Origin: an uncultured Syntrophomonadaceae bacterium
GTDB taxonomy: Bacteria; Bacillota; Dethiobacteria; DTU022
Assembly (NCBI GenBank): GCA_964463285.1
Contig: CAYXBB010000003.1
Location: 1,913-65,912, forward strand
DNA: 64,000 nt
Direction: 5' to 3'
Numbering within the stretch: position 1 is the first letter of the stretch; every line of letters begins with the position of its first letter. A program made the translations under genes and the position numbers. The notes under the pieces are model-generated. The model did not search any database, had not been told where the DNA came from, and worked only from the letters and a program-made list of their open reading frames with translations. Shown here piece after piece: positions 4,217-43,964 of this stretch.

Positions 4217-6277
4217 GTGGAGCGGCTGTTCGAACTTATTATTAAAAAAAGGAAAAACGTTGTTTTTATATTCATTGTGGCCACCTTGTTATCTATTTTC
4301 CTGCTATTTTTTGTAAATATTAATTACAACCTGGTCGATTATCTCCCGGTGAAGGCCCAATCCACGAAAGCGCTTAAACTAATGGAAAGCGAATTCGAAG
4401 AGACGATACCGAACACCACTGTTATGGTCAAAGATGTTTCTCTTATGGAGGCGTTGGAATATAAAGAAAAACTGGCCGCTATTGATGGGGTGAGGCAGGT
4501 TGTTTGGCTGGACGATATGATGGATATCAAAGAACCGCTTGAAATGGGCGATCGGGAGACCATTGAGGGCTTCTACAAGGAGGGCGACGCCTTATTTTCG
4601 GCAACGATTAGCAAGGGGATGGAGAAAGAGGCCTGCAGTAACATATTAGACTTGATCGGCAACAAAGGAGCGCTTACCGGAGAAGCACCGGGGCTGGTGT
4701 TTATCCAGGAGGCGACTACCTCTTCTGTCATCAAGGCCCTGGTGATTCTGCTGCCCGTGGTTATTCTCATTTTGATTTTGTCGACAACTTCCTGGATTGA
4801 ACCGTTAATCTTTTTAGTGGCAATCGGTATTTCTATCGTAATCAATATGGGGACCAATATTCTCTTTGGCAAAATATCCTTTATGACCAATTCGATAAGT
4901 CCTATTTTGCAACTGGCCTGTTCGCTGGATTACGCTGTCTTCTTGTTGCATAGTTTTGCAGATAAAAGAAAACAGTATGCGGATGTGAAAGAAGCCATGT
5001 TGCAGGCCATGAAGGAATCCATGTCAACCGTGGCTGCCAGCGCCATGACCACCCTCTTTGGTTTTTTGGCTCTTTTGTTCATGAATTTCGGCATTGGGGC
5101 CGACCTGGGGATGGCTCTGGCGAAAGGAATTATTTTCAGCTTTATCTCGGTTATGGTTTTCCTGCCGGCTTTAACCCTTTATATTTATAAAATGATCGAT
5201 AGAACAAAACACCGGGCTTTTATGACGGGCTTAAGAAAGATCCACCTGCTGCTTTCAAAAATTGCCGTTCCGGCGGTTATTATTGTTTTGATTTTAATTG
5301 TGCCCTCCTTTTTGGGACAAAGCCGGACCAGCTTTCTTTACGGCAATGATACCCTAGATCCCCATACCCGTTACGGCAAAGATACAATAGCCGTTGAAAA
5401 ACAATTTGGCAAATCTACCGTTATGGCCCTGCTGGTTCCCCGAGGAGAGGTGGCCAAAGAGGAGGCTTTAACCAGTAAACTAAAAGAACATACTCAGGTA
5501 ACCGGTGTCGTTTCCTATGTTACCGAGGTCGGTGCTGCCATACCCCCTGAATATCTTAATGAGGGGATAAGGAAACAATTTTATTCGGAAAACTTCACGC
5601 GTCTCATCCTCTACACGGATACACCGGCAGAAGGCGAGCAGGCATTTAACACTGTGGAGAAGATTAATGAAACAGCAACCTCATATTACGGGGATGGTTT
5701 TTATATCCTGGGGGAAAGCGCCAATCTGTATGATATGAAACATATTGTTCAGAAAGATAACCTGGTTGTCAATTTGATCGCCATAGGGGCTATTTTTATT
5801 GTTTTACTGGCCACATTCAAATCGGCCGTCTTACCGTTTTTGTTGGTACTGACCATAGAGGCCGGCATCTGGATCAATTTAGCTATCCCCTATTTTAACG
5901 GTACCCCGATCAATTTTTTGGGCTATTTAGTTATAAGCACGGTCCAGTTGGGCGCTACGGTAGACTATGCGATTTTATTGACAAACACCTACCTGGCAAA
6001 CCGGAAACGTATGCTCAAAAGAAAAGCGATCAGCGCCTCTGTTAATGGGGCTTTTCAGTCCATCCTGGTCTCGGCCCTTACCCTATCTACGGCCGGGTTT
6101 ACACTTTATGCCACGTCGTCTAACAGTGCCATTGCCGATATAGGCCTTCTGCTGGGAAGAGGCACTTTGCTCTCCCTGGCTCTGGTGCTACTGTTTTTGC
6201 CCACTCTACTGGTGATCTTTGATCGGGCAATTGAAAAGTATACCTATAGAATTAAGTTCTTTAATCATTCTCAATAA
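4217..6277 (+). CDS. MMPL/RND-superfamily membrane transporter (YdfJ-like)
   Basis: Two hydrophobic 6-TM blocks separated by soluble loop domains. GTG start preceded by GGGGGA. A TetR gene lies divergently upstream. Confidence 0.7.
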   Translation: MERLFELIIKKRKNVVFIFIVATLLSIFLLFFVNINYNLVDYLPVKAQSTKALKLMESEFEETIPNTTVMVKDVSLMEALEYKEKLAAIDGVRQVVWLDDMMDIKEPLEMGDRETIEGFYKEGDALFSATISKGMEKEACSNILDLIGNKGALTGEAPGLVFIQEATTSSVIKALVILLPVVILILILSTTSWIEPLIFLVAIGISIVINMGTNILFGKISFMTNSISPILQLACSLDYAVFLLHSFADKRKQYADVKEAMLQAMKESMSTVAASAMTTLFGFLALLFMNFGIGADLGMALAKGIIFSFISVMVFLPALTLYIYKMIDRTKHRAFMTGLRKIHLLLSKIAVPAVIIVLILIVPSFLGQSRTSFLYGNDTLDPHTRYGKDTIAVEKQFGKSTVMALLVPRGEVAKEEALTSKLKEHTQVTGVVSYVTEVGAAIPPEYLNEGIRKQFYSENFTRLILYTDTPAEGEQAFNTVEKINETATSYYGDGFYILGESANLYDMKHIVQKDNLVVNLIAIGAIFIVLLATFKSAVLPFLLVLTIEAGIWINLAIPYFNGTPINFLGYLVISTVQLGATVDYAILLTNTYLANRKRMLKRKAISASVNGAFQSILVSALTLSTAGFTLYATSSNSAIADIGLLLGRGTLLSLALVLLFLPTLLVIFDRAIEKYTYRIKFFNHSQ

Positions 6278-9133: not shown

Positions 9134-9539
9134 TCTTATATGTCTCTTTCGTTATTTTATCGTGAGAAAAGCCGGCAAAATCTTCGCTCGATACCAAGGT
9201 ATATTTACCTGCAGTTAAATCGATATCGAGCAGGAAGTCCGCTGGGTACTCCCTGTTCCAGCGATATACAATAATCATTGTAATTTCATGAATATATGGA
9301 GAAAGAGGGATGTTTTCAACAAAACAGAAATCATCCTCTCCGGCTATCTTCATAAAGTTGTCATCTATGAAGACGGGGCCAACACTGTTTTCAAATAATG
9401 GAGCGGAAAAACTATTAATAAACAATCGGTTCTTTCCTACTGTACAAACAAGATCATCAATAAGAAGCCGGTCCCGGCTTTGACGGCGATTGTTGAACAA
9501 CCTGCCGTTTTTATTATCCAAACACAGAAATACCTTCAT
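9126..9539 (-). CDS. Hypothetical cytoplasmic protein, translationally coupled to the nuclease; candidate nuclease inhibitor or immunity protein
   Basis: 137 aa with no signal peptide. GGGAAGG ribosome-binding site. It is the first gene of a two-gene operon with the nuclease. Confidence 0.5.
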   Translation of the reverse strand: MKVFLCLDNKNGRLFNNRRQSRDRLLIDDLVCTVGKNRLFINSFSAPLFENSVGPVFIDDNFMKIAGEDDFCFVENIPLSPYIHEITMIIVYRWNREYPADFLLDIDLTAGKYTLVSSEDFAGFSHDKITKETYKNE

Positions 9540-9633
9540 TTACATATACCTTCCCAAGATGCTTGCACATCTTTCTTATCGGCGGTTTGAATTAGCTTAT
9601 CATGTATTCCCTAAAATAAACAATTGGTGTTTT

Positions 9634-9658
9634 TTTACATTTTATGATATGCTATACT
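9634..9658 (+). promoter_or_regulatory. Candidate sigma-A promoter for mntA-hepT (TTTACA ... TGcTATACT extended -10)
   Basis: Sequence motifs only. The 13-nt spacer is short, but an extended -10 is present. Confidence 0.3.
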
Positions 9659-9735
9659 ATAGGCAAATAAATAATTTAAGCTCCATGAACACGACCCCTT
9701 TCCAAAAAACTGTTCAATTTGGGAGAAGGCATAAG

Positions 9736-10221
9736 ATGACCCGGTTAAGTAAAAAGAAAAACAAAATCAATATCGAGCCCCACATGGATAAGATAAAACA
9801 ATATTTTTTAGGCAGCACAGACATTGCTGCAGCTTTACTTTTTGGATCCTACGGCACTAAGTACCAAACTCCGCTTAGTGACGTGGATATGGCTATCTTA
9901 TTTCTGCCTGGACAAAAAATATCCCTTGATCGTGAACTAGTAATATTATCAGATTTAAGCATCATTACCGGAGAGGAAGATATTAATCTGGTAATCCTCA
10001 ACAAGGCGCCGCTAACATTGCAATTTGAGGTATTGCTAACCGGAAATGTGCTATTCAAAAAAGATCTCTGCCTGGAGGACTTTCATGAATATGTTTGTAA
10101 GCGCTATGCGGATTACAAAATAGACCTGGATCAATTCAATCGGGACTATGATTCGGCTTTACGGGGGGTGTACCTAAATGATCAACCAAGGAAAAATACG
10201 AGACAAAATCCAGGTTATTAA
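9736..10221 (+). CDS. mntA: MntA-type minimal nucleotidyltransferase, antitoxin of a type VII TA system
   Basis: GSxxxG...DxD nucleotidyltransferase motif (LFGSYGTKYQTPLSDVDMAI). The ATG at 9736 follows GGGAGAAGG. The annotated longer ORF from 9490 has no ribosome-binding site. Confidence 0.8.
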   Translation: MTRLSKKKNKINIEPHMDKIKQYFLGSTDIAAALLFGSYGTKYQTPLSDVDMAILFLPGQKISLDRELVILSDLSIITGEEDINLVILNKAPLTLQFEVLLTGNVLFKKDLCLEDFHEYVCKRYADYKIDLDQFNRDYDSALRGVYLNDQPRKNTRQNPGY

Positions 10222-10600
10222 AAACAACCTAGCCAAACTTGAAATGATCTATTCAAAAGGCTTGGATAATTTTTTAGAAAGCCCCTTTCTGGCCGATGCC
10301 GCTATACGTCTTTTGCAGGTGTCTATTGAAGCTATGCTAGACATTTCACACCATCTAATTTCTAGAAATCATTTAGGAACACCAAAATCCTATCGCGAAA
10401 CAATTGAATTGCTTACGCAAGCAGATATACTGCCTCAAGAAAAGCTGCCGATATTTACCATGATGGTTAAATTCCGAAATCGGGCTGTTCACATCTACGA
10501 TAAAATCGATAATAAAGAGGTTTTTAAAATAATCGAAAACCATCTTTACGACTTTAACGATTTTATAAAAGCAATTATTCGATTTTTTGAAAACACCTGA
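10178..10600 (+). CDS. hepT: HepT (DUF86, HEPN) RNase toxin
   Basis: HEPN Rx4HxY motif (RNRAVHIYD). It overlaps mntA by 44 nt. Confidence 0.8.
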   Translation: MINQGKIRDKIQVIKNNLAKLEMIYSKGLDNFLESPFLADAAIRLLQVSIEAMLDISHHLISRNHLGTPKSYRETIELLTQADILPQEKLPIFTMMVKFRNRAVHIYDKIDNKEVFKIIENHLYDFNDFIKAIIRFFENT

Positions 10601-10622: not shown

Positions 10623-11603
10623 TTACAGGCTCACCCCGCCACGCAGTTTCTGCCGGATTAGATCTATATATTCCTCCATATCCTGCAGCTTATCGAGAAT
10701 AAGAGATTCGTTTTCTGTTTTTTCTATGACTTTTGAAATCCCGCCGTTTTTCATGACTATCCGTTTATTCCCCAATAGGGAAAGAATGGGATCATGGGTT
10801 GCAATCAATACTATTTTTTCATTCTTTACCAGGAGATTGAGCGCCATATTCCGATTTATTCCGGCATTTTCAATTTCATCAATTAAGACAATGGGGGAAT
10901 GGCTTAAACATGCAATATCAGCTATCATTAAAGCCCTTGACTGCCCGCCGCTTAAAAATGTTACAAACATCTCCTTGGAGATAGCTTCACCCGAAAGCAA
11001 ATTGGCCTGTTCCAACACCTTGCTTACAACTTCAGTTGGATTATCGATCATCCTGCTTTCGGCATGCAGCACTATAAAATCCTGAACAGTTATATCCATG
11101 ACAAAATTCATATGCTGCGAAAGCTGAGCCACAAACTGTTGTGAACAAGAAAATTGCGAACTGGATTTTGGGACATTGTCGTCAATTAAAATTTTTCTTC
11201 TGGTCGGGGTATCTCCCTGCGCCAGCCATTCAATATCTTCCAGTAATCTACTTTTTCCGGAACCGGTAGGGCCAACAATGCAGACAATTTCACCGGACTT
11301 AATTTTTAAAACACAGTCTTCAGGGTTCCCCTGTTTGTCTAAACCGCCCAGTATGGTTAATGAGTCTATTTTTGTTTTTTGGTTTTTGATACCTTGCAAA
11401 TGTTGTAAATAAGTGCTGACAAGATCCAGCAGTTCCAGCCGGCTGAGGCCCACATCTTCTAAAGTCAAATTGTCCAGAGATTGAATGTATTCTTTAACAG
11501 AAATGCTGGAATGACCTGTGGAAAGCCCCATATCGGCCATAAAATTCAGAAACCCGGGGTATTTTTCAGTCAGTACCATCATGGGCATATCTAATAAGTT
11601 CAT
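10623..11603 (-). CDS. Atypical ABC-type ATPase with a ~75-aa N-terminal extension
   Basis: Walker A GPTGSGKS, signature LSGGQSRAL, Walker B VLIDEIE, and H-loop LIATHD. It is the last gene of the minus-strand operon. Confidence 0.7.
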   Translation of the reverse strand: MNLLDMPMMVLTEKYPGFLNFMADMGLSTGHSSISVKEYIQSLDNLTLEDVGLSRLELLDLVSTYLQHLQGIKNQKTKIDSLTILGGLDKQGNPEDCVLKIKSGEIVCIVGPTGSGKSRLLEDIEWLAQGDTPTRRKILIDDNVPKSSSQFSCSQQFVAQLSQHMNFVMDITVQDFIVLHAESRMIDNPTEVVSKVLEQANLLSGEAISKEMFVTFLSGGQSRALMIADIACLSHSPIVLIDEIENAGINRNMALNLLVKNEKIVLIATHDPILSLLGNKRIVMKNGGISKVIEKTENESLILDKLQDMEEYIDLIRQKLRGGVSL

Positions 11604-11618
11604 AATTATTTTCTACCC

Positions 11619-12305
11619 CTAAGCAATATCCATTTTATTTTTACTACCCATTTGATATTTTTCACCGATTTTGATCTCTCCCAGGCAGTAGGAGCAAAGA
11701 GCCGACGGCATAGTATACCGAAGCTCTTTTTCCGCCAAGGTTGATATTTCAGTAGACAAATTGAAAAGATCTGCCAATCGGGATGCTCCCTGCCCGGTTA
11801 TACCGTTTACATGTAATAAAATACATCTAGGGTTGGCCTCTCTTACCTTAAAAGCAAACACCTCCCGCTCTGCTTGAGAAACAATATCACCCTTAGTAAT
11901 AACGATAATATCTGCGAATTTCAACATCGGCCCGATTTTCTTAGGGGTATTGATTCCCATCAAATTATCGATTACGCATACGCCCAAAACCCCCTGGATG
12001 TGAGGCGAACACCGGTTACATAATCCCGCACTTTCACAAACGAACAGATCATATCCCTTATTAAGTGCCCAGGAATGGCAAGCCTCGATGTTGCTCACAA
12101 AAAAGTGGTCGGGACAAAGGCTGCCCGAAAACCCCACCTCCACACCTATCCCCTTATTTTTATATAAAATGTCGTCATGCGTGGAAAGGCAGTCTAATTT
12201 AACCACCCCGATTTTCATGCCCTTTCCCTGTAATATTTCCGCGGCCTTAATTATTACAGAGGTTTTCCCCGAAGAGGGGGGTCCGGATACGGTGAGCATT
12301 TTCAT
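11619..12305 (-). CDS. G3E-family (HypB/UreG-like) P-loop GTPase, putative metallochaperone
   Basis: P-loop GPPSSGKTS. The CESAGLCNRCSP segment resembles the HypB ENVGNLVCP motif, and ITKGD is an NKxD-like motif. There is a C-terminal CxxC. It overlaps the upstream gene by 4 nt. Confidence 0.6.
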   Translation of the reverse strand: MKMLTVSGPPSSGKTSVIIKAAEILQGKGMKIGVVKLDCLSTHDDILYKNKGIGVEVGFSGSLCPDHFFVSNIEACHSWALNKGYDLFVCESAGLCNRCSPHIQGVLGVCVIDNLMGINTPKKIGPMLKFADIIVITKGDIVSQAEREVFAFKVREANPRCILLHVNGITGQGASRLADLFNLSTEISTLAEKELRYTMPSALCSYCLGEIKIGEKYQMGSKNKMDIA

Positions 12306-13195
12306 GATATGGCCGGCCCTTTTCTTAAAATTTTATAATACTGCCCCCAGCTATCCCAAAAAAACGGCATAACTTGATCGCGGTTATCCTTCGGCATCAC
12401 CACATCCGGGCTAGCCGGTATAAATCCCTGCTGTGCAAGCATTTCTTGAACCCGTTTACTAAATAAGATATTTGCAAACTCCAGCAAGTGCGGCCCGGCC
12501 TCCTTTGAGCAAACTAACACAAGGGGGCTGCATAATGCGCCTTCTTCGGGCAATATGGGGACAATATCCCGGGTCATCATTTTAGAAAACCCTAGATTGG
12601 CAATGCCGAGAGCAAACTGCCCTCCCCCTACTGCTTTTAGGGTTTCTACCGGCGAGTGGTCGAAATTTATTAGAGGATAAAATTCTTTGAATTTATCGGG
12701 ATGCCAATTTTTTAAAATAGCTGTTACCACCTGGGTTATAGGCGAATTCGCTTCGGGAAACACTACCTGCCGATGTTTTCCGTAATTCAAGAGATCCTGC
12801 CAGCTAACCGGCATTTCCTCACGATGCAGCAACCCGGTGTTTCCAACTATTACAAAAGGTATTAGGGCAAACGGATGGAAGATTCCCTCCGGATCTTCCA
12901 ATCCTTTGCTTTTTAATTCGTTGCGCAGCGGATACTTTCCAGGTAGAGATAAAAAACTGTTTTTCAAAATTTCCTTGCTAACGGGTACAAAATCAGTAGC
13001 GTGAGCAATTGCCAATTGGGGAAGTGAACCTTGCTCCAAACTTTGAATGAACCAGTTTTCAGCCTCATCATTGCTGGCTGTCTCTATAACGACATCTTCC
13101 CTATACGTCTTATTAAATTCCTTCAAATTTTCCCTGAGTATATCCATTAAGGCTTTTCTTATATTAATGGAAACATGAACCATAACCCGACTCAT
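12302..13195 (-). CDS. Hypothetical cytoplasmic protein with periplasmic-binding-protein-like character and no signal peptide
   Basis: An ORF within the operon. I recognise no motifs, so the fold assignment is tentative. Confidence 0.45.
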   Translation of the reverse strand: MSRVMVHVSINIRKALMDILRENLKEFNKTYREDVVIETASNDEAENWFIQSLEQGSLPQLAIAHATDFVPVSKEILKNSFLSLPGKYPLRNELKSKGLEDPEGIFHPFALIPFVIVGNTGLLHREEMPVSWQDLLNYGKHRQVVFPEANSPITQVVTAILKNWHPDKFKEFYPLINFDHSPVETLKAVGGGQFALGIANLGFSKMMTRDIVPILPEEGALCSPLVLVCSKEAGPHLLEFANILFSKRVQEMLAQQGFIPASPDVVMPKDNRDQVMPFFWDSWGQYYKILRKGPAIS

Positions 13196-13232
13196 AATCC
13201 GGTCACCTTCTTTCAGACATAAATCCTAAGGT

Positions 13233-14009
13233 CTAACAGCTATCAAGACCTTTCCATCTCTCTAACTTTGTTTCAAGTGGTTTAAAAACTATTTTTTCCA
13301 GAAATACTACTATAAATATTAATACCAATGCCCAGGCAAAAAGTTTGTCAGTTTCAAGGTAGAACCTGGTTGTGGCAATGGCCTGGCCGATGCCGTCCTG
13401 TGCTCCAAATAACTCGGCCATTACCACCGACCTGATAGATGAAGCTGCGCTTAAAGCAAATCCCGCCAAAATGCCGTAGGTCAGCCCGGGAAGGTATACC
13501 TTCTTAATCTTAATTTTCAGCGGAACTTTATAAACAGCGGCCATTTGCAGCAAATTGGGGTCAATAGATTCAATTCCTTTCTCACAATTTATATACATTA
13601 TCGGAAATACCAGCAAAGCAACCACAAACACCACCTGGTTTGTGCCCTGACCAAACCATACCATAGCAATTACCACAAAGATCACCCCGGGAACCGCTAA
13701 AATAGCATTGACCAGGGGGGAGATTAAATTATTAATGGGCGCTTTTAAACCTCCTAAAATACCAACGAAAATCCCACAAATAACCCCAAGCGTCAAACCG
13801 GCCAACTGGCGTTTAACTGAAATGAAAAAGTTTCTTAATAACTCACCGCTTGTTAGCATGTCGATTAATGCCCTGAAAGTAGACTGTGGCGAAGGAACTA
13901 TCAGCGGATGAGAAAAAAGCGATATTATCTGCCATATCAACAATAATGCCAGCACACCCAATATATAAAATTTGCTTTTACTACTGAGATACGTAATAGA
14001 AATTTTCAT
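13233..14009 (-). CDS. ABC transporter permease (NitT/TauT family)
   Basis: Polytopic membrane protein with the EAA-like permease region. Confidence 0.75.
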   Translation of the reverse strand: MKISITYLSSKSKFYILGVLALLLIWQIISLFSHPLIVPSPQSTFRALIDMLTSGELLRNFFISVKRQLAGLTLGVICGIFVGILGGLKAPINNLISPLVNAILAVPGVIFVVIAMVWFGQGTNQVVFVVALLVFPIMYINCEKGIESIDPNLLQMAAVYKVPLKIKIKKVYLPGLTYGILAGFALSAASSIRSVVMAELFGAQDGIGQAIATTRFYLETDKLFAWALVLIFIVVFLEKIVFKPLETKLERWKGLDSC

Positions 14010-14997
14010 CGGGCAGCTTGCCGCCTATAATTTTTAAAGAAGCCGTTGTCGTCAGCTCATTAAAAAATGCTTCAATATCTCTTTGGCATTCGCTGACAGG
14101 CATGGGATTCAGTTTTGCATACGGTATAGAGGCCGTCACCCCGTTGGCTTTCATAAAATCAAAATATTTTTCAACCACTGTTCCACTCTCTTCCGGGTGA
14201 TTATTGATCCAATTGCTGCTTTCGGTATACTTGGCCAAAAAACCATCTACCAGGGCTTTGTTTTCAGCATTGTCGCCAACAACCACGAACCCGGCTTGAG
14301 GTATCTTGCCATCCTTATTAGGGGTTACATTTCTCCACTCTTCTTCCAGGCTTAATAGCCTTTTTAATTCATTATTATTGGCTTTTGCCGCGGCAATGGT
14401 GGCGCTTGTCTTCGGCTCGTTGGATACCGCCAACTCAATTTCCCCCATACCCAATCTTGTGGCCGCTTCCGCCAGATCCATGTATACTATGTCTATATCC
14501 TTATCCGGATCAATGTTGTTTTTAATTAAGATATGCCTAAAAATAACGTCGTGCAAGCCTCCCTCATCATTCACAGCTATTGTTTTACCCTTCAAATCTT
14601 TAACAGATGTAACCCCGGTATCGGGGGAACCTAAGACATATAACATCCCCCAGGTGGCAACATTCGCCAGTTTTATGTTTAGGCCCTTGTTGTAAAGCAA
14701 TATTGCAGAGGTGATAGGCGTACAGGCTAAATTGACCTGCTCCGAGGTTATCATGGCCTTCAACTGATCCCCGTCATTCCAATGTATGGTGCTAAATTTT
14801 TCTGCAAAATCCTCCATCAGGTTATTATCCAACATATATGCTAAAGGATAAGTGATAGAGCCCTGGGAGTTGGCAACTATAAATTCTTTCATTTTAGCAG
14901 CCGGCTCTTCTTTTTCTTCCGGCTTGCATCCGGTTATACAGGTGATAAATATTAAACAGATAATCAACGTCGCCAATACTTTATTTTTTTTCATTAC
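13981..14997 (-). CDS. ABC transporter substrate-binding lipoprotein (NMT1/THI5-like, SsuA/TauA family)
   Basis: Lipoprotein signal MKKNKVLATLIICLIFITCITGC. The start at 14997 follows GGAGG, whereas the longer ORF from 15048 lacks a ribosome-binding site. Confidence 0.75.
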   Translation of the reverse strand, partial: VMKKNKVLATLIICLIFITCITGCKPEEKEEPAAKMKEFIVANSQGSITYPLAYMLDNNLMEDFAEKFSTIHWNDGDQLKAMITSEQVNLACTPITSAILLYNKGLNIKLANVATWGMLYVLGSPDTGVTSVKDLKGKTIAVNDEGGLHDVIFRHILIKNNIDPDKDIDIVYMDLAEAATRLGMGEIELAVSNEPKTSATIAAAKANNNELKRLLSLEEEWRNVTPNKDGKIPQAGFVVVGDNAENKALVDGFLAKYTESSNWINNHPEESGTVVEKYFDFMKANGVTASIPYAKLNPMPVSECQRDIEAFFNELTTTASLKIIGGKLPDENFYYVSQ

Positions 14998-15020
14998 AAT
15001 ACCTCCATGCCTAAACTTTA

Positions 15021-15710
15021 TTATATTTTTGCTAGCATTTGCTGGCAATATTCCGGGGTTCTTTCATTGTAAGGTAGCCGGATTTCAAACTTCCTGGCTA
15101 TTCTTACCGGCCTTCCATCAAAAATTAATATCTTCTTTCCCAACAACAAAGCTTCCCTGAGATCGTGAGTAACCAAAATGGTGGTACATGGCTTCCAGTC
15201 AAGCAAATCAAGCAAATACTCCCTTAAAGTAACCTTAAGTTTACTATCAAGCGCACTGAAGGGTTCATCCAACAATAATACGTCAGGTTCAACAGCAAAG
15301 GCCCTGGCCAGCGATACCCTTTGCTTCATCCCTCCGCTTATCTGTGAAGGGTAATAATCTTCAAAGCCTTCCAATCCCAATTTTTGAATAAGATTTTTGG
15401 ATATTTCTTGAATTTTAGTGTTATTTTGTTTGTGGTATGTATAAAGAACCAACTCGATATTTTCCTGAACACTGCACCAGGGCAGCAATCTGGACTCCTG
15501 AAAAACATAGCCAATTCTTGAACTCCCATTTAAACCGATTGACCCTTTATCGGGTTTTAATATTCCGGCCACCATCTGCAATAACGTAGTTTTACCTATT
15601 CCAGAAGCGCCACAAATACAAACAAAATCGCCATTTTCAATAAGGTAGTTGAATTCAGAAAAGATCTCCAGGGATCCAAATTTTTTATGGATGTTTGTAA
15701 TATTAACCAA
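15021..15710 (-). CDS. ABC transporter ATP-binding protein (NitT/TauT family)
   Basis: Walker A GASGIGKTT, signature SGGMKQR, Walker B LLLDEPFS. TTG start with GAGGTG. Confidence 0.8.
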   Translation of the reverse strand: MVNITNIHKKFGSLEIFSEFNYLIENGDFVCICGASGIGKTTLLQMVAGILKPDKGSIGLNGSSRIGYVFQESRLLPWCSVQENIELVLYTYHKQNNTKIQEISKNLIQKLGLEGFEDYYPSQISGGMKQRVSLARAFAVEPDVLLLDEPFSALDSKLKVTLREYLLDLLDWKPCTTILVTHDLREALLLGKKILIFDGRPVRIARKFEIRLPYNERTPEYCQQMLAKI

Positions 15711-15790
15711 ATTCCTAACACCTCAAAAATTGATAAACCTCAGGATTTAACCCCTAACCCCTCTAAAAATATTCAACAGACAGACCGGGG

Positions 15791-16399
15791 TTATTTCTCA
15801 AATTTAATCCACATCCCCACCGGAGAATGGTCCATATCAAACCGGGGAATAACGGTTTGCGATAATACGTTGCGCCACTTATCAGGAGCACCGGGTCCTA
15901 TTCTTTGGTGAACCGCTTCACTCCACTTCGGATCTTTTTCAGCCATTTTTTGAAAGATTTGCTGTTTAATTTCGGGGTTGCCAAAACCCGCACCGATGAC
16001 TGCCTTTCCTCCCGGTGACAATACACGATATACCTCATTGAAAACTTCTACAGGTTCCTCCCAAAAAAAGATAGAGCCCCGGCTTACAGCCAGTTGAACA
16101 GAGTTATCCTCCATAGGCAAATTTGAGACATCCACGGATAATGTTTTTACCCTTGTTTCGAGATTTCTGTCACAAATATTTTGCCGGGCAATCCCAAGCA
16201 TTTCCGGTTTTTTATCCAGCAAGCAAACGTTCAACTCGCTTATTTGAGCCAGGGCCAAACCTAAATATCCCGGACCACAGCCCAAATCGATACATTTCCC
16301 CCGGTTTATCCCGGTACCCGACAGGATCTGCCTGGCGATTTCCGAATATGCCGGGGCATATATTTCTCTTGCCATACGATCAAATTCTTTAGCTTCCAA
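15791..16399 (-). CDS. Class I SAM-dependent methyltransferase
   Basis: Motif I LDLGCGPGYL. The exact start is uncertain (a TTG at 16399 or an internal ATG). Confidence 0.7.
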   Translation of the reverse strand: MEAKEFDRMAREIYAPAYSEIARQILSGTGINRGKCIDLGCGPGYLGLALAQISELNVCLLDKKPEMLGIARQNICDRNLETRVKTLSVDVSNLPMEDNSVQLAVSRGSIFFWEEPVEVFNEVYRVLSPGGKAVIGAGFGNPEIKQQIFQKMAEKDPKWSEAVHQRIGPGAPDKWRNVLSQTVIPRFDMDHSPVGMWIKFEK

Positions 16400-16568
16400 T
16401 TGTCGGTTTAAACCTCCCGCTTCTATGATATTTTAATTTACCTCTCTAACCGGAATATTTTAATTTCCGCCATGTTAAAAATAGTTCCGCCTATCCCACT
16501 ATGGGAGACACAAATTCAGCAATACCCATGTTTCATCAACCTGTAAAAAACATTTGCCGGAAAAACTG

Positions 16569-17396
16569 CTATTTACGGGTCTTTATTGTTACACCGATAT
16601 TAACAGGTTTCCCAAAATACATGGAGGAGGTAGCTATGGCATCTACTCCCGTAGCCGCAAATGTCTCAATATTTTCTTCATTTATCCCCCCCGTAGCAAT
16701 GGTGGTAACCTGTGGAAAATCTTTTTTAATTTTTTTTGCTAAAACAGAAATGGTATTGGGATCCATGTGATCAAACTGTAACCCGTCAACCCCTGCCTTA
16801 CAAAGCAGCATGGCATCTTCCGGGCTTTTAATCTCCACCACTATCTTTTTTTCACTAACCTGCGCCGTTAACTTATTTAGCCTGTTCATAAATTCATCTT
16901 TAGAACTAAAAAAGTTTCGATGCTGTTGAAAAATAAGTATGGTTTCCGATAGGCCAAGCCGGTGGGGAAATCCACCGCCACATAAAACCGCTTTTACAGA
17001 TAACTCCTTTGTGCCGGGGAATACCTTTCTAGTAGAAACCACCGTTATACGATTGTTAATTTTTTTTGCCTTTTGAACTAGTTTGCGGGTTCGGGTAGCA
17101 ATAGCACTGGCATATTCAAGTATATTCTGGCAGGTTCTCCAGAGAGTATGTAGGGCTGTTGCCTTTCCTGTTATAGTAATAACCGCCTGATTTATAGAAA
17201 CCGCTTCGCCGGAGGCAACGTCTTCAACTAGAGCGGCTCCTCTAGATGCACAAAGGTGTGATATTTCCTCGGTGCCGCATATTATCGCATCTTCCCGAGA
17301 AAACATTTGCATCTCCGCATCCCGGCTACCGATCTCCAATAAATAAGTAGTAAGATCAAAGTAGGGAACATCTTCTTTTATCCATCTTTCCAACAT
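16569..17396 (-). CDS. modD: ModD (quinolinate-phosphoribosyltransferase-like, molybdenum-transport-associated)
   Basis: QPRTase fold with a ModD-like N-terminus (MLERWIKEDVPYFDLTT). The GTG at 17432 lacks a ribosome-binding site, so the ATG at 17396 is preferred. Confidence 0.7.
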   Translation of the reverse strand: MLERWIKEDVPYFDLTTYLLEIGSRDAEMQMFSREDAIICGTEEISHLCASRGAALVEDVASGEAVSINQAVITITGKATALHTLWRTCQNILEYASAIATRTRKLVQKAKKINNRITVVSTRKVFPGTKELSVKAVLCGGGFPHRLGLSETILIFQQHRNFFSSKDEFMNRLNKLTAQVSEKKIVVEIKSPEDAMLLCKAGVDGLQFDHMDPNTISVLAKKIKKDFPQVTTIATGGINEENIETFAATGVDAIATSSMYFGKPVNIGVTIKTRK

Positions 17397-17481
17397 ACCA
17401 TTTGTTATATTAAGCACAGGACGCCCCGTCACAATTTATTTGCACTATAGGCACTTTTCTATTTACCCCCATAACGGTCCT

Positions 17482-17640
17482 AAAAAATAAGCTGCCTCGC
17501 GAAAGAGGCAGCAATTATAACCTACCTTATCCACCTTCTTTCCTAAAAGGGAGGCTTAACCGTTTCCAGTTAAACCCTATCGTTCATGGCCCGTCGCAAC
17601 CATCTCAGGAGCCCATGAATCGAAGATGTATAAAATAATA
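17482..17640 (-). promoter_or_regulatory. Candidate Moco riboswitch (aptamer plus terminator) in the modD operon leader
   Basis: Conserved core GGGCCAUGAACGAUAGGGUUUAACUGGAAACGGUUAAGCCUCCCUUUUAGGAAAGAAGG, shared with two other loci. It is followed by the hairpin GCUGCCUCUUUCGCGAGGCAGC and UUAUUUUUU (17482-17512). Confidence 0.6.
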
Positions 17641-21686: not shown

Positions 21687-23318
21687 CTACCGGGCCATAA
21701 ATAGTTCAATATCCGAATCAACAGTCCCGATTCCGGCAATACCGAATTTCTCTATCAGGACCTTGGCAACATTGGGAGAAAGGAACCCCGGAAGTGTAGG
21801 ACCAAGGTGAATGTTTTTAATGCCCAAATAAAGCAGTGCAAGAAGTACAATAACGGCTTTCTGTTCATACCAGGCAATATTGTAAGTAATCGGCAACCTG
21901 TTGATATCGTCAAGACCGAATACCTCCTTAAGCTTAAGGGCGATAACCGCCAGTGAATAACAATCGTTGCACTGTCCGGCGTCCAGTACTCTGGGAATGC
22001 CGCCGATATCGCCCAATCTCAGCTTATTGTAACGATATTTCGCGCAGCCCGCGGTTAGAATAACCGTGTCCTTGGGAAGTTTTTCGGCAAATTCAGTGTA
22101 ATACACCCTTGATTTCATACGCCCGTCACAGCCGGCCAGAACAAAGAATTTTTTAATAGTTCCGGATTTAACTGCATCTACAACCTTATCTGCCAGGGTC
22201 ATAACTTGGTTGTGGGCAAAACCTCCAAGAATGCATCCGGTTTCAATTTCATCGGGCGCAGAAAGGGTCCGGGCAAGCGCAATGATTTCAGAGAAATCCT
22301 TTTTGCCCCGTTCATCCGCTACAATATGCTTGCAACCGGGATAACCGGTGGAACCCGTGGTAAAGATTCTACCCCTCACTTCTTCACTTCTGGGAGGAAC
22401 GATGCAGTTAGTGGTAAACAGAATGGGGCCATGGAAGGGCCCAAATTCATCGATTTGTTTCCACCAGGCATTACCATAATTTCCGGCAAAGTTATCGTAT
22501 TTTTTAAATGCCGGATAGTAATGGGCGGGTAACATTTCACCATGGGTATATACATCTACACCGGTGCCCCCGGTCTGCTCCAGCAACTGTTCCAAATCGG
22601 TCAGGTCGTGACCGGAAATAAGTATTGCCGGGTTTTTCCTGACGCCTATATTGACTTCCGTGATCTCGGGATTACCAAATTTCGAGGTGTGGGCCTCATC
22701 TAAAAGCGCCATAACCCTCACACCGTATTCACCGGTTTTTAGGGTCAGCGACACCAGATCATCTGCCGAAAGAGAATCGTCCAAAGTTGTAGCCAGGGCT
22801 TCGTAGATAAATGAGTTTATATCCAGGTTTTCTTTCCCTAGATTCTTGGCATGCTCAGCATAGGCCGCCATACCCTTAAGGCCGTAGACAATCATCTCCC
22901 GCAGAGAACGTATGTCCTCATTTTCAGTGGACAGCACACCTACCAAAGCGGCCTTTTCCAGCATAGATTCCCTCGAACTTATCGAAAAGGTTGCTGCGTC
23001 GTGTAAATCCCCCGCGGAAACAGACAGTCTAAGCCCGTCCCTAAAAGCAATCATTTTCCCAATCTGGTTTTCAATAAAGTCATCATCAAAGTTTGCATTG
23101 GTAATTGTCATGAACAGGCTGCTGAGTACCTCGTAGTTTGTATCACCATACTTGCTGATATCAAGTTTCCCTTTCACAATAATTTCCGAAATGCCTTTAA
23201 GCGTATAAATAAGAAGATCCTGAAGCTTGGCTACTTCTTCGTTTTTTCCACAGACACCCCGTACCGTACAGCCTTTTCCTTTTGCTGTTTCCTGACATTG
23301 ATAACAGAACATGCTCAT
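21687..23318 (-). CDS. hcp: Hybrid cluster protein / hydroxylamine reductase
   Basis: N-terminal [11 protein letters not shown]...C cysteine cluster, with full-length Hcp similarity. Confidence 0.9.
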
Positions 23319-24064: not shown

Positions 24065-24430
24065 TTAGCACGTTCGTGGGTTGGGCAAACCGGCAATACG
24101 CCGAGCGCCGTTTTTTATACCTCCCGGGAAAAGGTTTTCAATAGCAAGCATACTCAACCCGGTACCTTTGGTCAGTTGCCGATTCAATGGTGCCCGGCCA
24201 TGGTAACTATAAAAATCGCGCATGAACTGAATTACTTTCCAATGATCTTCACCAAGTTCAAATCCGCTCTCCAGGGCCATAGCTTCCGCAATTTCTTTAT
24301 GCCAGTCTCCGGATCGCCAAAAAAAACCTTCGTCGTCAAAAACTATACTACGCCCGGCAATGATCCGGTAACCGCGGCGGCCGGGTTCACCCGGCCGCCC
24401 GGTATTTTCCACAGGCCCATCGGTGCTCAT
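24065..24430 (-). CDS. TusE/DsrC/DsvC-family sulfur-relay protein
   Basis: Family signature HWKVIQFMRDFYSYHGRAPLNRQLTK and a C-terminal ...AGLPNPRTC. It overlaps the aldehyde oxidoreductase stop by 1 nt. Confidence 0.7.
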   Translation of the reverse strand: MSTDGPVENTGRPGEPGRRGYRIIAGRSIVFDDEGFFWRSGDWHKEIAEAMALESGFELGEDHWKVIQFMRDFYSYHGRAPLNRQLTKGTGLSMLAIENLFPGGIKNGARRIAGLPNPRTC

Positions 24431-27102: not shown

Positions 27103-27340
27103 TACATTCCCTCCATTGCAAGTTGAATGTGGAGACACTGCTTTCTAATTGTTAAAGTATTTCACCCCTTTCGGCAATTATTCCCAAGGCGTTTTACCCT
27201 GCCGGAAATATTATCGCAAGGGTTTCCGGCAACCGATTGTTAAGATAACCGCAGCTATAGTCATGCACACAGATGAACTGAAAAAAACTGATCTTTTAAC
27301 GTATTTTAGGTTTCCAGAGTTATATATACTAATTAAATTA

Positions 27341-43923: not shown

Positions 43924-43964
43924 TTGTCTTTCTCCTTCATAATTTTTGGCGCCCCTTCTTTAAG

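Follow-up and report, generated by a model that had tools for sequence, protein, structure and literature searches.

The preliminary description of a 64,000-nucleotide stretch of DNA from an uncultured Syntrophomonadaceae bacterium (contig CAYXBB010000003.1; hereafter, the window) had proposed that a riboswitch-led operon unites an ABC importer, a G3E GTPase, and a second ABC ATPase in a single system for molybdenum or tungsten (Mo/W). This raises the question of whether these genes belong together and whether they are dedicated to Mo/W. While the preliminary description was largely right about the operon, it missed that the last three genes form an independent and widespread module that is not exclusively Mo/W-linked. 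This conserved, uncharacterised triad, previously seen only as part of the operon, is the main new result of our study.

A Mo/W-cofactor riboswitch heads an operon of eight genes

Eight co-directional ORFs follow the riboswitch exactly where the preliminary description had placed them, and profile matches supported the proposed gene identities (Table 1). In 5' to 3' order, the aptamer and its own terminator are followed by ModD, a SAM-dependent methyltransferase, a NitT/TauT-type importer (ATPase ABC1, lipoprotein, and permease), a signal-less binding protein of the FbpA fold (SBP6), a HypB/UreG-like G3E GTPase, and a second ABC ATPase (ABC2). Of the translational coupling claimed for the last six genes, short gaps (ABC1 to lipoprotein, about 26 nt, given a lipoprotein start at M19; permease to SBP6, 37 nt; GTPase to ABC2, 15 nt) and overlapping lipoprotein and permease ORFs were present, whereas a 4-nt overlap was found at the SBP6/GTPase junction only. 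The modD-methyltransferase and methyltransferase-ABC1 gaps are longer (169 and 80 nt), and no terminator was found in either. The region is indeed an AT-richer island, with a GC content of 0.40-0.43 at 8-18 kb compared to about 0.44-0.57 (mostly 0.46-0.53) in the remaining window.

Table 1. Features of the riboswitch-controlled operon, with positions in the window.
Feature	Position	Strand	Basis
Moco/Tuco riboswitch aptamer, P3-less variant	17519..17637	-	RF01055, cmscan
Intrinsic terminator (expression platform)	17482..17512	-	terminator search and folds
modD (quinolinate-phosphoribosyltransferase-like)	16569..17432	-	TIGR01334; QRPTase_N and QRPTase_C
Class I SAM-dependent methyltransferase, 202 aa	15791..16399	-	Methyltransf_11/25/31
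ABC importer ATPase (ABC1), NitT/TauT-like	15021..15710	-	ABC_tran, 101 bits
NMT1/SsuA-like substrate-binding lipoprotein, 337 aa from M19	13981..14994	-	PF09084 (NMT1)
ABC importer permease	13233..14009	-	PF00528 (BPD_transp_1)
Cytoplasmic FbpA-fold binding protein (SBP6, class 3)	12302..13195	-	PF13343 (SBP_bac_6)
G3E-family GTPase, uncharacterised subfamily	11619..12305	-	PF02492, 39 bits
Soluble ABC ATPase (ABC2), DUF1858-resembling N-terminal extension of ~90 aa	10623..11603	-	ABC_tran

The aptamer, proposed earlier as a Moco motif, matched RF01055 with 56 bits and E = 1e-10 (cmscan against Rfam; gathering score, 36) over all of the model (positions 1-135) apart from the deleted P3 columns, and its P1, P2, P4, and P5 stems were recovered by RNAfold (z = -3.4). 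The adjacent terminator, GCUGCCUC-UUUCGC-GAGGCAGC followed by UUAUUUUUU, is a GC-rich hairpin of 8 pairs (6 G-C) with a U-tract; it was the top match of the search, with no other strong minus-strand terminator in the region, and was present in every fold computed. Judged by inspection, the aptamer segment GGAAAGAAGG could instead pair with CCUCUUUC of the terminator 5' arm and loop. Since MFE folding of the riboswitch region revealed no antiterminator, the presumed direction of the switch (cofactor-bound = OFF) rests on analogy. A second P3-less RF01055, at 27 kb of the window, leads an XDH-family (Mo) enzyme, which makes it unsafe here to equate P3-less aptamers with tungsten. Furthermore, a canonical modABC, already noted in the preliminary description, lies at 41179-44184 behind a P3-containing RF01055.

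The assignment of ModD is supported by 208 bits to TIGR01334 (equivalog cutoff, 178.85), and the gene adjoins the triad in three further loci (L030, L033, and L088). The protein is homologous to QPRTase (PMC2700814), and the true start of modD may be the ATG at codon 13. The methyltransferase reached the threshold of no NCBIfam equivalog (CpaM, 46 vs 180 bits; ArsM and UbiE also below); its protein cluster occurs in 17 of 92 triad loci, including 10 of the 13 class-3 loci, and it is thus a conserved companion of class-3 triads.

None of the importer components reached the NCBIfam threshold of a characterised sulfonate, taurine, nitrate, or HMP equivalog, in line with the earlier description of the ABC system as non-canonical. 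The best matches of ABC1 (sulfate, NtrCD, SaoA, TauB) were all under cutoff, as were those of the permease (SaoP, 111 vs 295 bits; SsuC, 86 vs 347) and the lipoprotein match to SsuA_fam (66.8 bits; cutoff, 163.5). A start at M19 provides the lipoprotein with a lipobox (...CITG|C), a separate gene call likewise gave 337 aa, and its nearest solved homologue is 3hn0, annotated as 'nitrate transport protein' (E = 2e-8). We know of no Mo/W substrate for NitT/TauT-family importers. Such an importer is a rare partner of the triad (5 of 92 loci), and the closest relatives of the window locus carry a MolA-like (molybdate/tungstate-type) FecCD importer in its place. The importer of the triad is interchangeable, and that of the window thus represents a lineage-specific swap.

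The last three genes form an autonomous conserved triad

The SBP6-GTPase-ABC2 triad is an autonomous module, which anaerobic bacteria and Methanomicrobiales carry in at least several hundred species. Homologues of the GTPase comprise 6286 clusters, with 594 confirmed matches in species-representative genomes and an identity across phyla of about 65%. Therefore, the earlier grouping of ABC system, GTPase, and second ATPase stands as an operon, but not as a single system. ABC2 is a member of the triad and not of the transporter; the GTPase gene always precedes ABC2, even where the locus has no permease.

Conservation of Walker A, Q-loop, LSGGQ, Walker B (IDE), and H-loop across 75 orthologues indicates that ABC2 is catalytically intact. 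Its ABC domain begins near residue 95 (ABC_tran, residues 98-243), so that the N-terminal extension is about 90 aa long rather than about 75 aa, and this extension aligned with the DUF1858 region of SBP6 proteins with 94% probability (E = 1e-7, hhalign).

SBP6 had been described as a cytoplasmic protein, and both the lack of a signal peptide and a first beta-strand that starts at residue 2 of the AF2 model (pLDDT 90.8) agree with this. NCBIfam and PDB sequence searches returned no match for SBP6. Foldseek placed the model nearest to ferric-binding proteins (TM 0.65-0.77, about 14% identity) and not to ModA, TupA, or WtpA, which counts against a Mo/W ligand. The class-3 protein of the window lacks DUF1858 and Cys10/His181, and its conserved pocket-like residues (H7-x-S-I-N-I-R13, H65, S181, and N200) fit either a cation or an anion.

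The GTPase carries the motifs GPPSSGKT, ESAG, and TKGD as well as C64-P-D-H67, C76, C96xxC99-P-H102, C110, and the C-terminal C204xxC207 that had been pointed out previously. Scores against HypB (34.6 vs 121 bits), UreG (23 vs 204), and MobB (21 vs 76) were under threshold, with the fold nearest to HypB/UreG (TM 0.6-0.7); it is a G3E protein closest to these families and a member of neither. Invariant features include the hallmarks of G3E proteins and the two metal-site elements of the HypB type, namely a CH-type motif and a Cys after the G3 loop (PMC11672702). Our searches for this GTPase turned up neither a solved structure nor a curated family, and no description of its function in the literature. 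In its AF2 model, low confidence is confined to the three Cys/His loops, as one would anticipate of a site that depends on a metal or a partner. Thiolate-rich sites of this kind are found more typically with soft cations or Fe-S clusters than with oxyanions, and the invariance of the site across Mo-linked and NO-linked classes argues for one common ligand.

The neighbourhood of the triad follows the class of its binding protein

The Mo/W assignment held for the riboswitch, ModD, and the Mo/W-related neighbours in relatives, but not for class 1, the majority form of the triad, which lies in nitrosative-stress settings devoid of Mo markers. A Moco riboswitch, ModABC/ModD/Mop, or a MolA-like/FecCD importer was found in 28 of 34 class-2/3 loci (the window is class 3), whereas a Mo marker or MolA/FecCD importer was found in 1 of 43 class-1 loci (Fisher p = 4e-14, which overstates the significance, as the loci are not phylogenetically independent). 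Nitrosative-stress genes (Hcp/NrfA/Rrf2, also YgbA) lie beside 26 of the 43 class-1 triads; a small Cys-rich zinc-ribbon-like partner (c3) also occurs in class 1. Over its whole range, the triad is thus not Mo/W-specific, and its neighbourhood depends on the binding-protein class.

Within classes 2 and 3, ModABC, ModD, Mop, or MolA-like importers beside the triad reinforce the Mo/W link independently. Class-2 triads are flanked by ModA/ModB, Mop (TOBE), and an HTH_17-PBP_like regulator. Directly downstream of the triad in L089 lie ModA, with 95 bits against a cutoff of 62.5, and a Mo permease, with 249 bits against 210. Triad-associated Peripla_BP_2 proteins scored 161 bits (E = 3e-46) with MolA (HI_1472), a component of the molybdate importer MolBC-A (PMC4031551), compared to at most about 72 bits with characterised siderophore, heme, and B12 binders.

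RF01055 precedes the triad in just 4 of 92 loci: besides the window, these are two further Syntrophomonadaceae (L006 and L086; P3-less, 49 and 82 bits) and a Desulfosporosinus (L033; P3-containing, 73 bits, some 150 nt before the GTPase), representing two lineages, while the close relatives L087, L089, and L092 are devoid of it. In the 33 loci scanned, triad operons are not headed by any other cofactor riboswitch; matches to TPP, SAM, and c-di-GMP riboswitches lie elsewhere in their loci.

A proposed cofactor-repressed operon for Mo/W handling and alternative readings

The operon is controlled by a Mo/W-cofactor riboswitch, and the triad probably handles Mo/W intracellularly here. We give a probability of about 0.5 to the reading that the block is a cofactor-repressed operon for Mo/W acquisition and intracellular handling, in which the triad performs an NTP-driven hand-off in the cytoplasm; the ligand, the metal, and the hand-off mechanism are what we infer. 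With plentiful cofactor, the P3-less aptamer would bind the pterin cofactor and the adjacent terminator would halt transcription, whereas scarcity would allow read-through into the eight genes from modD to the end of the triad. A precedent has been published for Eubacterium limosum, in which 'Fe ABC-type' operons stand under terminator-bearing P3-less riboswitches and W limitation induces fetABC1 (PMC11725836). Lipoprotein, permease, and ABC1 would then bring in a metal oxyanion, free or as a complex, with the NitT/TauT importer filling the operon slot held in sister genomes by a MolA-like type II importer or ModABC. SBP6 may capture the imported species in the cytoplasm, and the GTPase may dimerise around its Cys/His site as HypB and UreG do. 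ABC2, never paired with a permease of its own, would serve as a nucleotide-driven clamp, and both NTPases would spend GTP and ATP to free the species from SBP6 for the cofactor-synthesis machinery or apo-enzymes. The triad would thus be a widespread general engine with specificity set by its binding protein, wired to Mo/W in classes 2 and 3 and to nitrosative-stress genes in class 1.

A different ligand, iron or another soft cation, appears unlikely but deserves serious consideration. Here, the triad would be a cytoplasmic Fe(II) or Fe-S trafficking or repair module, switched on with W/Mo metabolism (Fe-S-rich tungsto- and molybdo-enzymes, MoaA) and under stress by NO, which destroys Fe-S clusters. 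The resemblance of SBP6 to FbpA, FutA, and HitA, the JGI annotation of its relatives as Fe3+ binding proteins, and the conservation in classes 1 and 2 of Cys10, Asp60, and His181, roughly at the FbpA metal/anion ligand positions, would fit; however, the class-3 protein of the window has lost Cys10 and His181, and the FbpA Tyr-Tyr pair is absent. The Cys-rich GTPase, with an invariant site that would suit a single ligand for all classes, DUF1858 on SBP6 and, remotely, ABC2, and the class-1 neighbours Hcp, NrfA, Rrf2, YgbA_NO, and PepSY_TM likewise point to iron, as do TonB-dependent receptors adjoining some loci. Nevertheless, no recurrent Fur-type or iron-related neighbour gene was noticed, ModABC, ModD, Mop, and a ModE-like regulator are Mo/W-specific neighbours, and the associated Peripla_BP_2 proteins are much nearer to MolA than to any characterised iron-chelate binder. 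The authors of the study on E. limosum read the ABC operons under Tuco riboswitches as iron uptake (PMC11725836). An OFF riboswitch, though, would place peak expression at scarce cofactor, the wrong sign for feeding Fe to abundant W/Mo enzymes.

It is improbable that the triad delivers nothing and acts as a sensor or regulator, with SBP6 sensing the imported species and GTPase and ABC2 gating the importer by trans-inhibition or activation. In classes 2 and 3, triad and importer genes are interleaved in variable order, the triad is constant while the importer type changes, and an intact ABC2 could heterodimerise with importer ATPases. However, each importer comes with an ATPase of its own, the 43 class-1 loci without a nearby importer require a triad capable of acting by itself, and characterised G3E proteins are metallochaperones or cofactor-loading gates rather than transporter regulators (PMC11672702).

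Slightly less probable still is a detoxification system, in which a toxic oxyanion of the arsenite, selenite, tellurite, or chromate class would be bound and methylated by the products of the importer-like genes together with methyltransferase and triad. Five class-3 loci and one class-2 locus are indeed headed by a regulator of the ArsR family whose tail is Cys-rich, and ArsP_2 and chromate-transporter genes are occasional neighbours, but ars, chr, and teh core genes do not recur. Furthermore, the similarity of the methyltransferase to ArsM and TehB is weak and all its matches are far under threshold, the lipoprotein and periplasmic binding proteins indicate an importer rather than efflux, and a Moco riboswitch with ModD/ModABC neighbours would be unexpected.

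Cofactor riboswitches commonly control a salvage importer of the same cofactor, and organic heterocycles are typical ligands of NMT1/THI5-like and Peripla_BP_2 binding proteins. Uptake of a pterin or cofactor fragment that ModD and the methyltransferase modify and the triad re-metallates, modelled on TPP riboswitch-ThiXYZ (with its NMT1-type binding protein) and B12 riboswitch-BtuFCD, would give ModD, the QPRTase homologue without known function (PMC2700814), a role, but is very improbable given that the Peripla_BP_2 proteins are nearest to the oxyanion binder MolA, the nearest solved lipoprotein homologue is annotated as a nitrate binder, many triad loci lack ModD and the methyltransferase, and no pterin-metabolism gene recurs nearby.

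Comparison with known systems

The importer of the window shares domains and gene order with SsuABC, TauABC, NrtABCD, and ThiXYZ, but neither its riboswitch nor its neighbours agree with a sulfonate, nitrate, or HMP regulon. Relatives carry the triad in one operon with a FecCD-type importer and a MolA-like binding protein (161 bits), reminiscent of MolBC-A (HI1470/71/72), or have it beside ModABC; the window likewise has a canonical riboswitch-controlled modABC, at another position, but differs in that the importer of the operon is NitT/TauT-type. To our knowledge, neither MolBC-A nor ModABC requires a cytoplasmic binding protein, a GTPase, or a second ATPase. In the fetABC operons of E. limosum, as in the window, a P3-less RF01055 and a terminator precede an ABC import operon; the fetABC operons carry an iron-type annotation and were read as iron uptake, and a GTPase or second ATPase was not reported (PMC11725836). 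As a functional analogy for ABC2, SufC of SufBCD is a permease-less ABC ATPase that drives a cytoplasmic metallocofactor machine; there is no sequence kinship beyond the ABC fold, and ABC2 has a DUF1858-like N-domain and no SufB/SufD-like partners.

Close parallels also exist with the G3E metallochaperones of nickel insertion, HypB with HypA and UreG with UreE-F-H. The triad GTPase shares with them the P-loop, the G3E-typical ExxG, and the guanine-specificity motif, as well as a Cys-(Pro)-His motif and the Cys right after the G3 loop, both at positions that build the metal site of the dimer interface, while c3 of class 1 weakly recalls HypA. However, identity to HypB/UreG is only 20-22%, far under equivalog thresholds, and C76, C99, H102, C110, and CxxC are additional invariant residues. 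Furthermore, unlike HypB and UreG, which act with HypA or UreEFH, the triad GTPase is accompanied by an FbpA-fold SBP6 and an ABC ATPase, and in place of nearby hydrogenase or urease genes, its context is Mo/W or nitrosative stress.

Organization of the operon and its leader

Searches with Pfam and NCBIfam assigned identities to the eight minus-strand ORFs at 10623-17432, a putative operon led by a Moco/Tuco aptamer that was found by an Rfam covariance search. The preliminary description had read this arrangement, including the Moco riboswitch with its terminator and a canonical modABC elsewhere in the window, from the sequence alone, and our analysis agrees with it apart from small details.

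Features of the operon and of other loci in the window, with position, strand, and supporting evidence. SBP6, GTPase, and ABC2 are the last three operon genes; ABC1 is the ATPase of the NitT/TauT-type importer.
Feature	Position	Strand	Evidence or remark
HepT-like RNase and Polbeta nucleotidyltransferase	9490-10600	+	convergent with the operon end
ABC2 ATPase	10623-11603	-	326 aa, ABC domain from about residue 95; Pfam/NCBIfam
cobW/HypB-type GTPase	11619-12305	-	228 aa; Pfam/NCBIfam
SBP6 (SBP_bac_6 protein)	12302-13195	-	297 aa; Pfam/NCBIfam
BPD_transp_1 permease	13233-14009	-	Pfam/NCBIfam
NMT1/SsuA-like binding protein	13981-15048	-	Pfam/NCBIfam; start most likely M19
ABC1 ATPase	15021-15710	-	Pfam/NCBIfam
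Class I SAM methyltransferase (MT)	15791-16399	-	all equivalog scores far under threshold
ModD	16569-17432	-	TIGR01334 208.1 bits (cutoff 178.85); QRPTase N PF02749 and C PF01729
Intrinsic terminator	17512-17482	-	3' of the aptamer; 8-bp GC-rich hairpin and U-tract
Moco/Tuco aptamer RF01055 of the operon	17519-17637	-	56 bits (gathering threshold 36), E = 1e-10, model 1-135
Hcp	21687-23318	-	Prismane, 571 bits
XDH/MOP-family aldehyde oxidoreductase	24430-27138	-	902 aa; Fer2, Fer2_2, Ald_Xan_dh_C, MoCoBD_1/2
Second P3-less RF01055	27389-27510	-	56 bits; leads the XDH/MOP-family gene
Canonical modABC	41179-44184	-	ModA TIGR01256 210 bits; behind P3-containing RF01055 (74 bits)

All gaps between the last six genes are at most 37 nt long, and the ORFs of SBP6 and the GTPase share 4 nt. 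Neither the spacer between modD and MT (169 nt) nor that between MT and ABC1 (80 nt) contains a terminator, promoter-like matches in both are no commoner than in shuffled sequence, and the hairpin 3' of the aptamer is the sole strong minus-strand terminator of the region. Starting at M19, the NMT1/SsuA-like binding protein would be a lipoprotein of 337 aa with the lipobox CITG↓C, and an independent gene call agrees with this start.

The GC content at 8-18 kb is 40-43%, compared to roughly 44-57% (mostly 46-53%) in the remaining window. The Polbeta nucleotidyltransferase and HepT-like RNase genes, a probable MNT/HepT toxin-antitoxin pair, also lie in this AT-richer block. The Hcp gene is found about 4 kb from the operon; as Hcp is the commonest neighbor of one class of related loci in other phyla (class 1, see below), this closeness could be either significant or fortuitous.

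Riboswitches ahead of the operon and its relatives

The columns of the P3 hairpin are deleted in the RF01055 alignment of the operon's aptamer, which is therefore a P3-less variant. According to a published correlation, aptamers with P3 are of the Moco type and those lacking it of the proposed Tuco type (Regulski 2008, PMC2408646). In the window, a second P3-less copy precedes the gene for the XDH/MOP-family aldehyde oxidoreductase, a molybdopterin enzyme that scores 790 bits against NF045668 (cutoff 1100). The XDH enzyme family is known as molybdenum-dependent, and this copy is thus an apparent exception to the rule that P3-less aptamers respond to a tungsten cofactor, so that W and Mo are indistinguishable for the operon. 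The riboswitch leading modABC carries a 29-nt insertion in its P2 loop.

By inspection, the conserved aptamer segment GGAAAGAAGG could, in the ligand-free state, pair with CCUCUUUC of the 5' arm and loop of the terminator, but minimum free energy folding of the operon leader revealed no antiterminator. We infer that the riboswitch would act as an OFF switch. Terminator-type P3-less riboswitches govern ABC operons in Eubacterium limosum as well, where W limitation induces fetABC1 (PMC11725836).

In three further genomes, RF01055 precedes homologs of the last three operon genes (SBP6, GTPase, and ABC2, hereafter the triad). Two of them belong to Syntrophomonadaceae, with a P3-less aptamer directly upstream of SBP6 in one (L006, 49 bits) and upstream of the gene order Peripla_BP_2-FecCD-ABC-SBP6-GTPase-ABC2 in the other (L086, 82 bits). 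The third is from Desulfosporosinus sp. OT (L033), where a P3-containing aptamer (73 bits) lies about 150 nt upstream of GTPase-ABC2-SBP6, with ModD just before the riboswitch. This locus contains two P3-containing RF01055 elements (5899-6031 and 9725-9855), 3.7 kb apart within a single gene string of mod-type transporter genes, ModD, GTPase-ABC2-SBP6, a FecCD-type importer, and three Peripla_BP_2 genes. Neither a strict regular expression nor an nhmmer profile revealed a Moco motif outside these four genomes among the 92 triad loci that were fetched; the riboswitch link is thus real yet a minority feature. TPP, SAM, and c-di-GMP riboswitches were present in the 33 loci scanned with Rfam, none of them leading a triad operon. 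Within 10 kb of the triad, c-di-GMP-I riboswitches were seen in two Firmicute loci (L024, 5790-6165; L011, 15298-15384) and are probably unrelated neighbors.

The triad is a widespread unit

The GTPase is represented by 6286 homolog clusters in the protein collection, and scanning a single genome from each species yielded at least 594 confirmed matches. Its carriers include Clostridia, Negativicutes, Desulfuromonadota, Deferribacterota, Bacteroidota, Chlorobiota, Cloacimonadota, Spirochaetota, some Proteobacteria, and Methanomicrobiales, and members from these groups found in the homolog search are 60-68% identical, all being annotated merely as "GTP-binding protein" or hypothetical. For neighborhood counts, ORFs were called and clustered in the 92 fetched loci. 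An SBP_bac_6 protein and an ABC ATPase of about 335 aa are the flanking neighbors of the GTPase in nearly all of them; 82 loci have a recognized SBP6, and many of the remainder are truncated contigs. The NitT/TauT importer (5 of 92 loci), ModD (4 of 92), and the methyltransferase (17 of 92) are far less frequent. The triad is the unit, and the other genes of the window operon are accessory. Searches of NCBIfam, the PDB, and the literature uncovered neither a curated family nor a solved structure for the triad, nor any paper that describes it, and it is not mentioned in Rodionov 2005.

Components of the triad

SBP6 showed no signal peptide, NCBIfam match, or PDB sequence match, and is predicted to be cytoplasmic. 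Its structural model (pLDDT 90.8) adopts a class D binding-protein fold, for which Foldseek returned FbpA, FutA, HitA, and cFbpA at TM 0.65-0.77 and about 14% identity, and ModA was not among the 50 best fold matches. An assignment to ModA, TupA, or WtpA was not supported, given the FbpA-like fold, the missing NCBIfam match, and an SBP_bac_11 score of 21.7 bits, below the threshold of 25. At the positions of the FbpA iron ligands, for which the correspondence is only approximate, SBP6 contains S9/I10, Q60, and A199/N200, and no Tyr-Tyr pair. A relationship to Tub (tungbindin) was dismissed, as Tub is a Mop homolog and unrelated.

The GTPase matches PF02492 with 39 bits (threshold 20.7), and 12 diverse members share the invariant motifs GPPSSGKT, ESAG (the G3E Walker B), and TKGD, corresponding to the Walker A, ExxG, and NKxD-type G4 elements of G3E P-loop GTPases. 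Equally invariant are the Cys and His residues C64-P-D-H67, C76, C96-x-x-C99-P-H102, C110, and C204-x-x-C207. None of the established families fits: scores remained below cutoff for HypB (TIGR00073, 34.6 vs 121.2 bits), UreG (TIGR00101, 23.1 vs 204.2; PDB UreG at E = 1e-3), MobB (TIGR00176, 21.4 vs 76.2, matching the P-loop region alone), and MeaB, while COG0523/CobW was rejected since CobW_C and the CxCC motif (GCxCC) are missing and the cysteines occur instead as CPDH, CNRC, and CSYC. Furthermore, no hyp or hydrogenase genes were found among the recurrent triad neighbors. The AF2 model of the GTPase (pLDDT 73.5) is nearest to HypB and UreG (TM 0.6-0.7, 20-22% identity), followed by MeaB/MMAA, and its low-confidence parts are exactly the three Cys/His loops.

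In ABC2, the Walker A, Q-loop, LSGGQ, Walker B with catalytic Glu, and H-loop are all present and at least 80% conserved across 75 orthologs, and the protein is thus predicted to be catalytically intact. It is kept whether a permease is nearby or absent, and each adjoining importer has its own ATPase, which argues for ABC2 being a soluble ABC protein. Its N-terminal extension of about 90 aa aligned to the DUF1858 region found in two classes of SBP6 (classes 1 and 2, see below) by hhalign (probability 94%, E = 1e-7 in local mode; 69% in global mode), a remote profile-profile resemblance for which hmmscan gave no DUF1858 (PF08984) match in ABC2 even at E = 10.

Three SBP6 classes with different gene neighborhoods

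As word-based searches with SBP6 reached only 21 relatives, class comparisons were made with ORFs called in the fetched loci. An alignment of 78 SBP6 proteins revealed three classes. Class 1 (43 loci, about 410 aa) is characterized by LLPCPVR, D60, H181, and an N-terminal DUF1858; class 2 (21 loci) by LLPCPLK together with the Cys, Asp, and His residues of class 1; and class 3 (13 loci, about 300 aa), which includes the window, by H-x-P/S-V/I-N-x-R, H65, S181, and N200, lacking DUF1858, Cys10, and His181.

A Mo marker or a MolA/FecCD importer accompanies 1 of 43 class-1 loci, 15 of 21 class-2 loci, and all 13 class-3 loci; for nitrosative-stress markers, the corresponding fractions are 26/43, 0/21, and 1/13, the last being the window itself. 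Fisher tests of these two associations gave p = 4e-14 and p = 4e-8, respectively, although both values exaggerate the significance because the loci are phylogenetically non-independent. The neighbors of class 1 comprise Hcp, NrfH/NrfA, an Rrf2 regulator, and YgbA_NO. Within class 2, 10 loci contain a Mo marker (ModA/B, ModD, Mop/TOBE, an HTH_17-PBP_like regulator, or a riboswitch) and 8 a FecCD importer, and the methyltransferase is found in 10 of the 13 class-3 loci.

We also observed a cluster of 80-aa Cys-rich proteins (CHGC...CPVCG...PCH; e.g., 11714-11953 in locus L005) that belong to no Pfam family and are weakly similar to the HypA zinc ribbon (E = 0.04). They follow ABC2 in 32 loci, 30 of which are class 1 (30/43) and none class 2 or 3, and may represent a fourth component of the nitrosative-stress version of the triad.

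Importers associated with the triad

The importer of the window could not be assigned to any known substrate, as all equivalog thresholds for NitT/TauT systems were missed. Sulfonate, taurine, nitrate, HMP, and "Sao" transport were rejected accordingly, with scores of 66.8 vs 163.5 bits for SsuA_fam (binding protein); 111.6 vs 295 for SaoP, 86.5 vs 347 for SsuC, 63.5 vs 342 for TauC, and 47.6 vs 209 for NtrB (permease); and 156 vs 360 for SaoA and 156 vs 357 for TauB (ABC1). The lipoprotein is nearest to 3hn0, deposited as a nitrate transport protein (E = 2e-8).

Loci whose GTPase most resembles that of the window (74-82% identity) have the gene order MT-SBP6-GTPase-ABC2 together with a FecCD/Peripla_BP_2 importer. 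These genes are followed by ModD in one locus (L088) and, in another (L089), by ModA and a Mo permease, which score 95 and 249 bits against cutoffs of 62.5 and 210, and by a WtpC-like ATPase. A profile built from eight triad-linked Peripla_BP_2 proteins of Clostridia and Methanomicrobiales, all from relatives' loci rather than the window, matched the MolA protein HI_1472 (3psa/3psh) with 161 bits (E = 3e-46), compared to at most about 72 bits for characterized siderophore, heme, and B12 binders; only two uncharacterized structural-genomics proteins scored above MolA. Molybdate is the substrate of MolBC-A, an importer of type II (PMC4031551). Because relatives hold importers of the Mo/W type in the same slot, the NitT/TauT importer of the window is thus a lineage-specific replacement, and the lower GC content of the 8-18 kb block is consistent with this. 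Since triad-linked binding proteins of this kind are MolA-like, the "Fe ABC-type" transporters fetABC1 and fetABC2 of E. limosum, which lie behind Tuco riboswitches and were read as iron uptake systems (PMC11725836), may really be W/Mo systems. Import of corrinoids, which the FecCD importers, the CobW-type domain, and a weak CpaM-like match of MT had brought up, is unlikely because the binding proteins are MolA-like and none of the 33 Rfam-scanned loci contains a cobalamin riboswitch.

Several individual loci deserve mention. In Clostridium aceticum (L002, 2146-12128), importers of the NMT1 and MolA/FecCD types are co-directional with the triad and followed by an ArsR-family regulator. Methanospirillum stamsii (L004, 8728-19268) encodes two oppositely oriented triad copies separated by about 1.6 kb, one with a MolA-like Peripla_BP_2 protein and the other with an NMT1-type importer in the gene order of the window; ABC2 of the latter copy comprises only 252 aa and lacks the N-terminal extension. 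TonB-dependent outer-membrane receptors adjoin the MolA-like importer and triad in Sporomusa (L021, L029) and Chlorobi (L061, L064, L078), which hints at receptor-mediated uptake of the system's substrate in diderm carriers. Moreover, in two Syntrophomonadaceae-type loci (L089, 14348-16424; L090, 6500-8632), the system is followed by an AmmeMemoRadiSam-like radical SAM protein (181 bits, cutoff 220) and a protein of 376-390 aa without family assignment.

Proposed function and comparison with known systems

The riboswitch, the unusual transporter, and the G3E GTPase of the preliminary description all stand, and its link to Mo/W is strengthened by RF01055 elements before the triad in further genomes and by ModD, ModABC, and MolA-like neighbors. 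What it had missed is that the triad is autonomous and widespread, that its importers are interchangeable, and that the system is not exclusive to Mo/W. We propose, with a probability of about 0.5, that the operon imports tungstate or molybdate under cofactor scarcity and that the triad hands the oxyanion off at the expense of GTP and ATP. When the cofactor is scarce, the importer would bring in tungstate or molybdate, SBP6 would capture it in the cytoplasm, and the GTPase and ABC2, cycling on GTP and ATP, would release it to cofactor synthesis or apo-enzymes. The main weaknesses of this reading are that SBP6 has an FbpA-like fold, that class 1 lacks Mo markers, that only a minority of loci show the riboswitch link, and that the P3-less copy ahead of the XDH-family gene leaves W and Mo indistinguishable. 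A further main weakness is the thiolate-rich site of the GTPase, whose invariance in Mo-linked and NO-linked classes points to a single shared ligand, perhaps a soft cation or an Fe-S species.

Taken further, and only tentatively, the triad could be viewed as a soluble ABC importer turned inward and as a fifth, hitherto overlooked G3E-GTPase system. An ATP-driven ABC2 clamp and a GTP-gated Cys/His chaperone would then pull tungstate or molybdate out of a very tightly binding SBP6 and deliver it to pterin-cofactor synthesis, possibly selecting W against Mo, while the class-1 sister version would act in N-oxide respiration or under nitrosative stress across hundreds of anaerobes.

Supply and repair of iron or Fe-S clusters would account for class 1 and for the fold of SBP6, but we consider it rather unlikely, as it is hard to reconcile with an OFF switch, with MolA-like importers, and with Mod neighbors. 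That the triad acts as a regulatory gate on importers is improbable, being contradicted by class-1 loci devoid of an importer. The ArsR regulator and the methyltransferase could hint at metalloid detoxification, yet importer architecture and Mo context offset these hints and leave little room for it, and salvage of pterin precursors is the most improbable of these explanations.

If this tentative extended reading is true, the triad would constitute the first cytoplasmic metallochaperone machine dedicated to Mo/W. How molybdate and tungstate are routed from importer to pterin cofactor is a long-standing gap, as is the way in which organisms using both metals keep them apart. With a GTPase of about 65% identity from Clostridia to Methanomicrobiales, accompanied by SBP6 and ABC2 and recurrently linked with Moco/Tuco riboswitches, ModABC, ModD, and MolA-like importers, the triad provides a concrete and genetically testable candidate. 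Furthermore, the class-1 triad points to an unstudied part of the Hcp/NrfA/NsrR nitrosative-stress neighborhood in Bacteroidota, Desulfuromonadota, Deferribacterota, and others.

Current reviews recognize four G3E families, UreG, HypB, MeaB, and COG0523, and the metallochaperones among them serve Ni, Co/B12, and Zn/Fe, with none assigned to Mo or W (PMC11672702). The CPDH motif and the Cys following ExxG match two elements that build the metal site at the HypB/UreG dimer interface (PMC11672702); the GTPase is a G3E protein with a predicted HypB-like metal site and would represent a fifth family. FbpA and FutA are periplasmic and bind iron through His, Glu, and Tyr-Tyr ligands, whereas SBP6 of the window, lacking a signal peptide, does not share their location. 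ABC2 is functionally comparable to SufC, a soluble ABC protein. We classify the triad as an NTPase-dependent metal-trafficking system. Each of its parts (a chaperone GTPase of the G3E type, an ABC ATPase, and a binding-protein fold) is of a known kind, while their architecture and their wiring to Mo/W are new.
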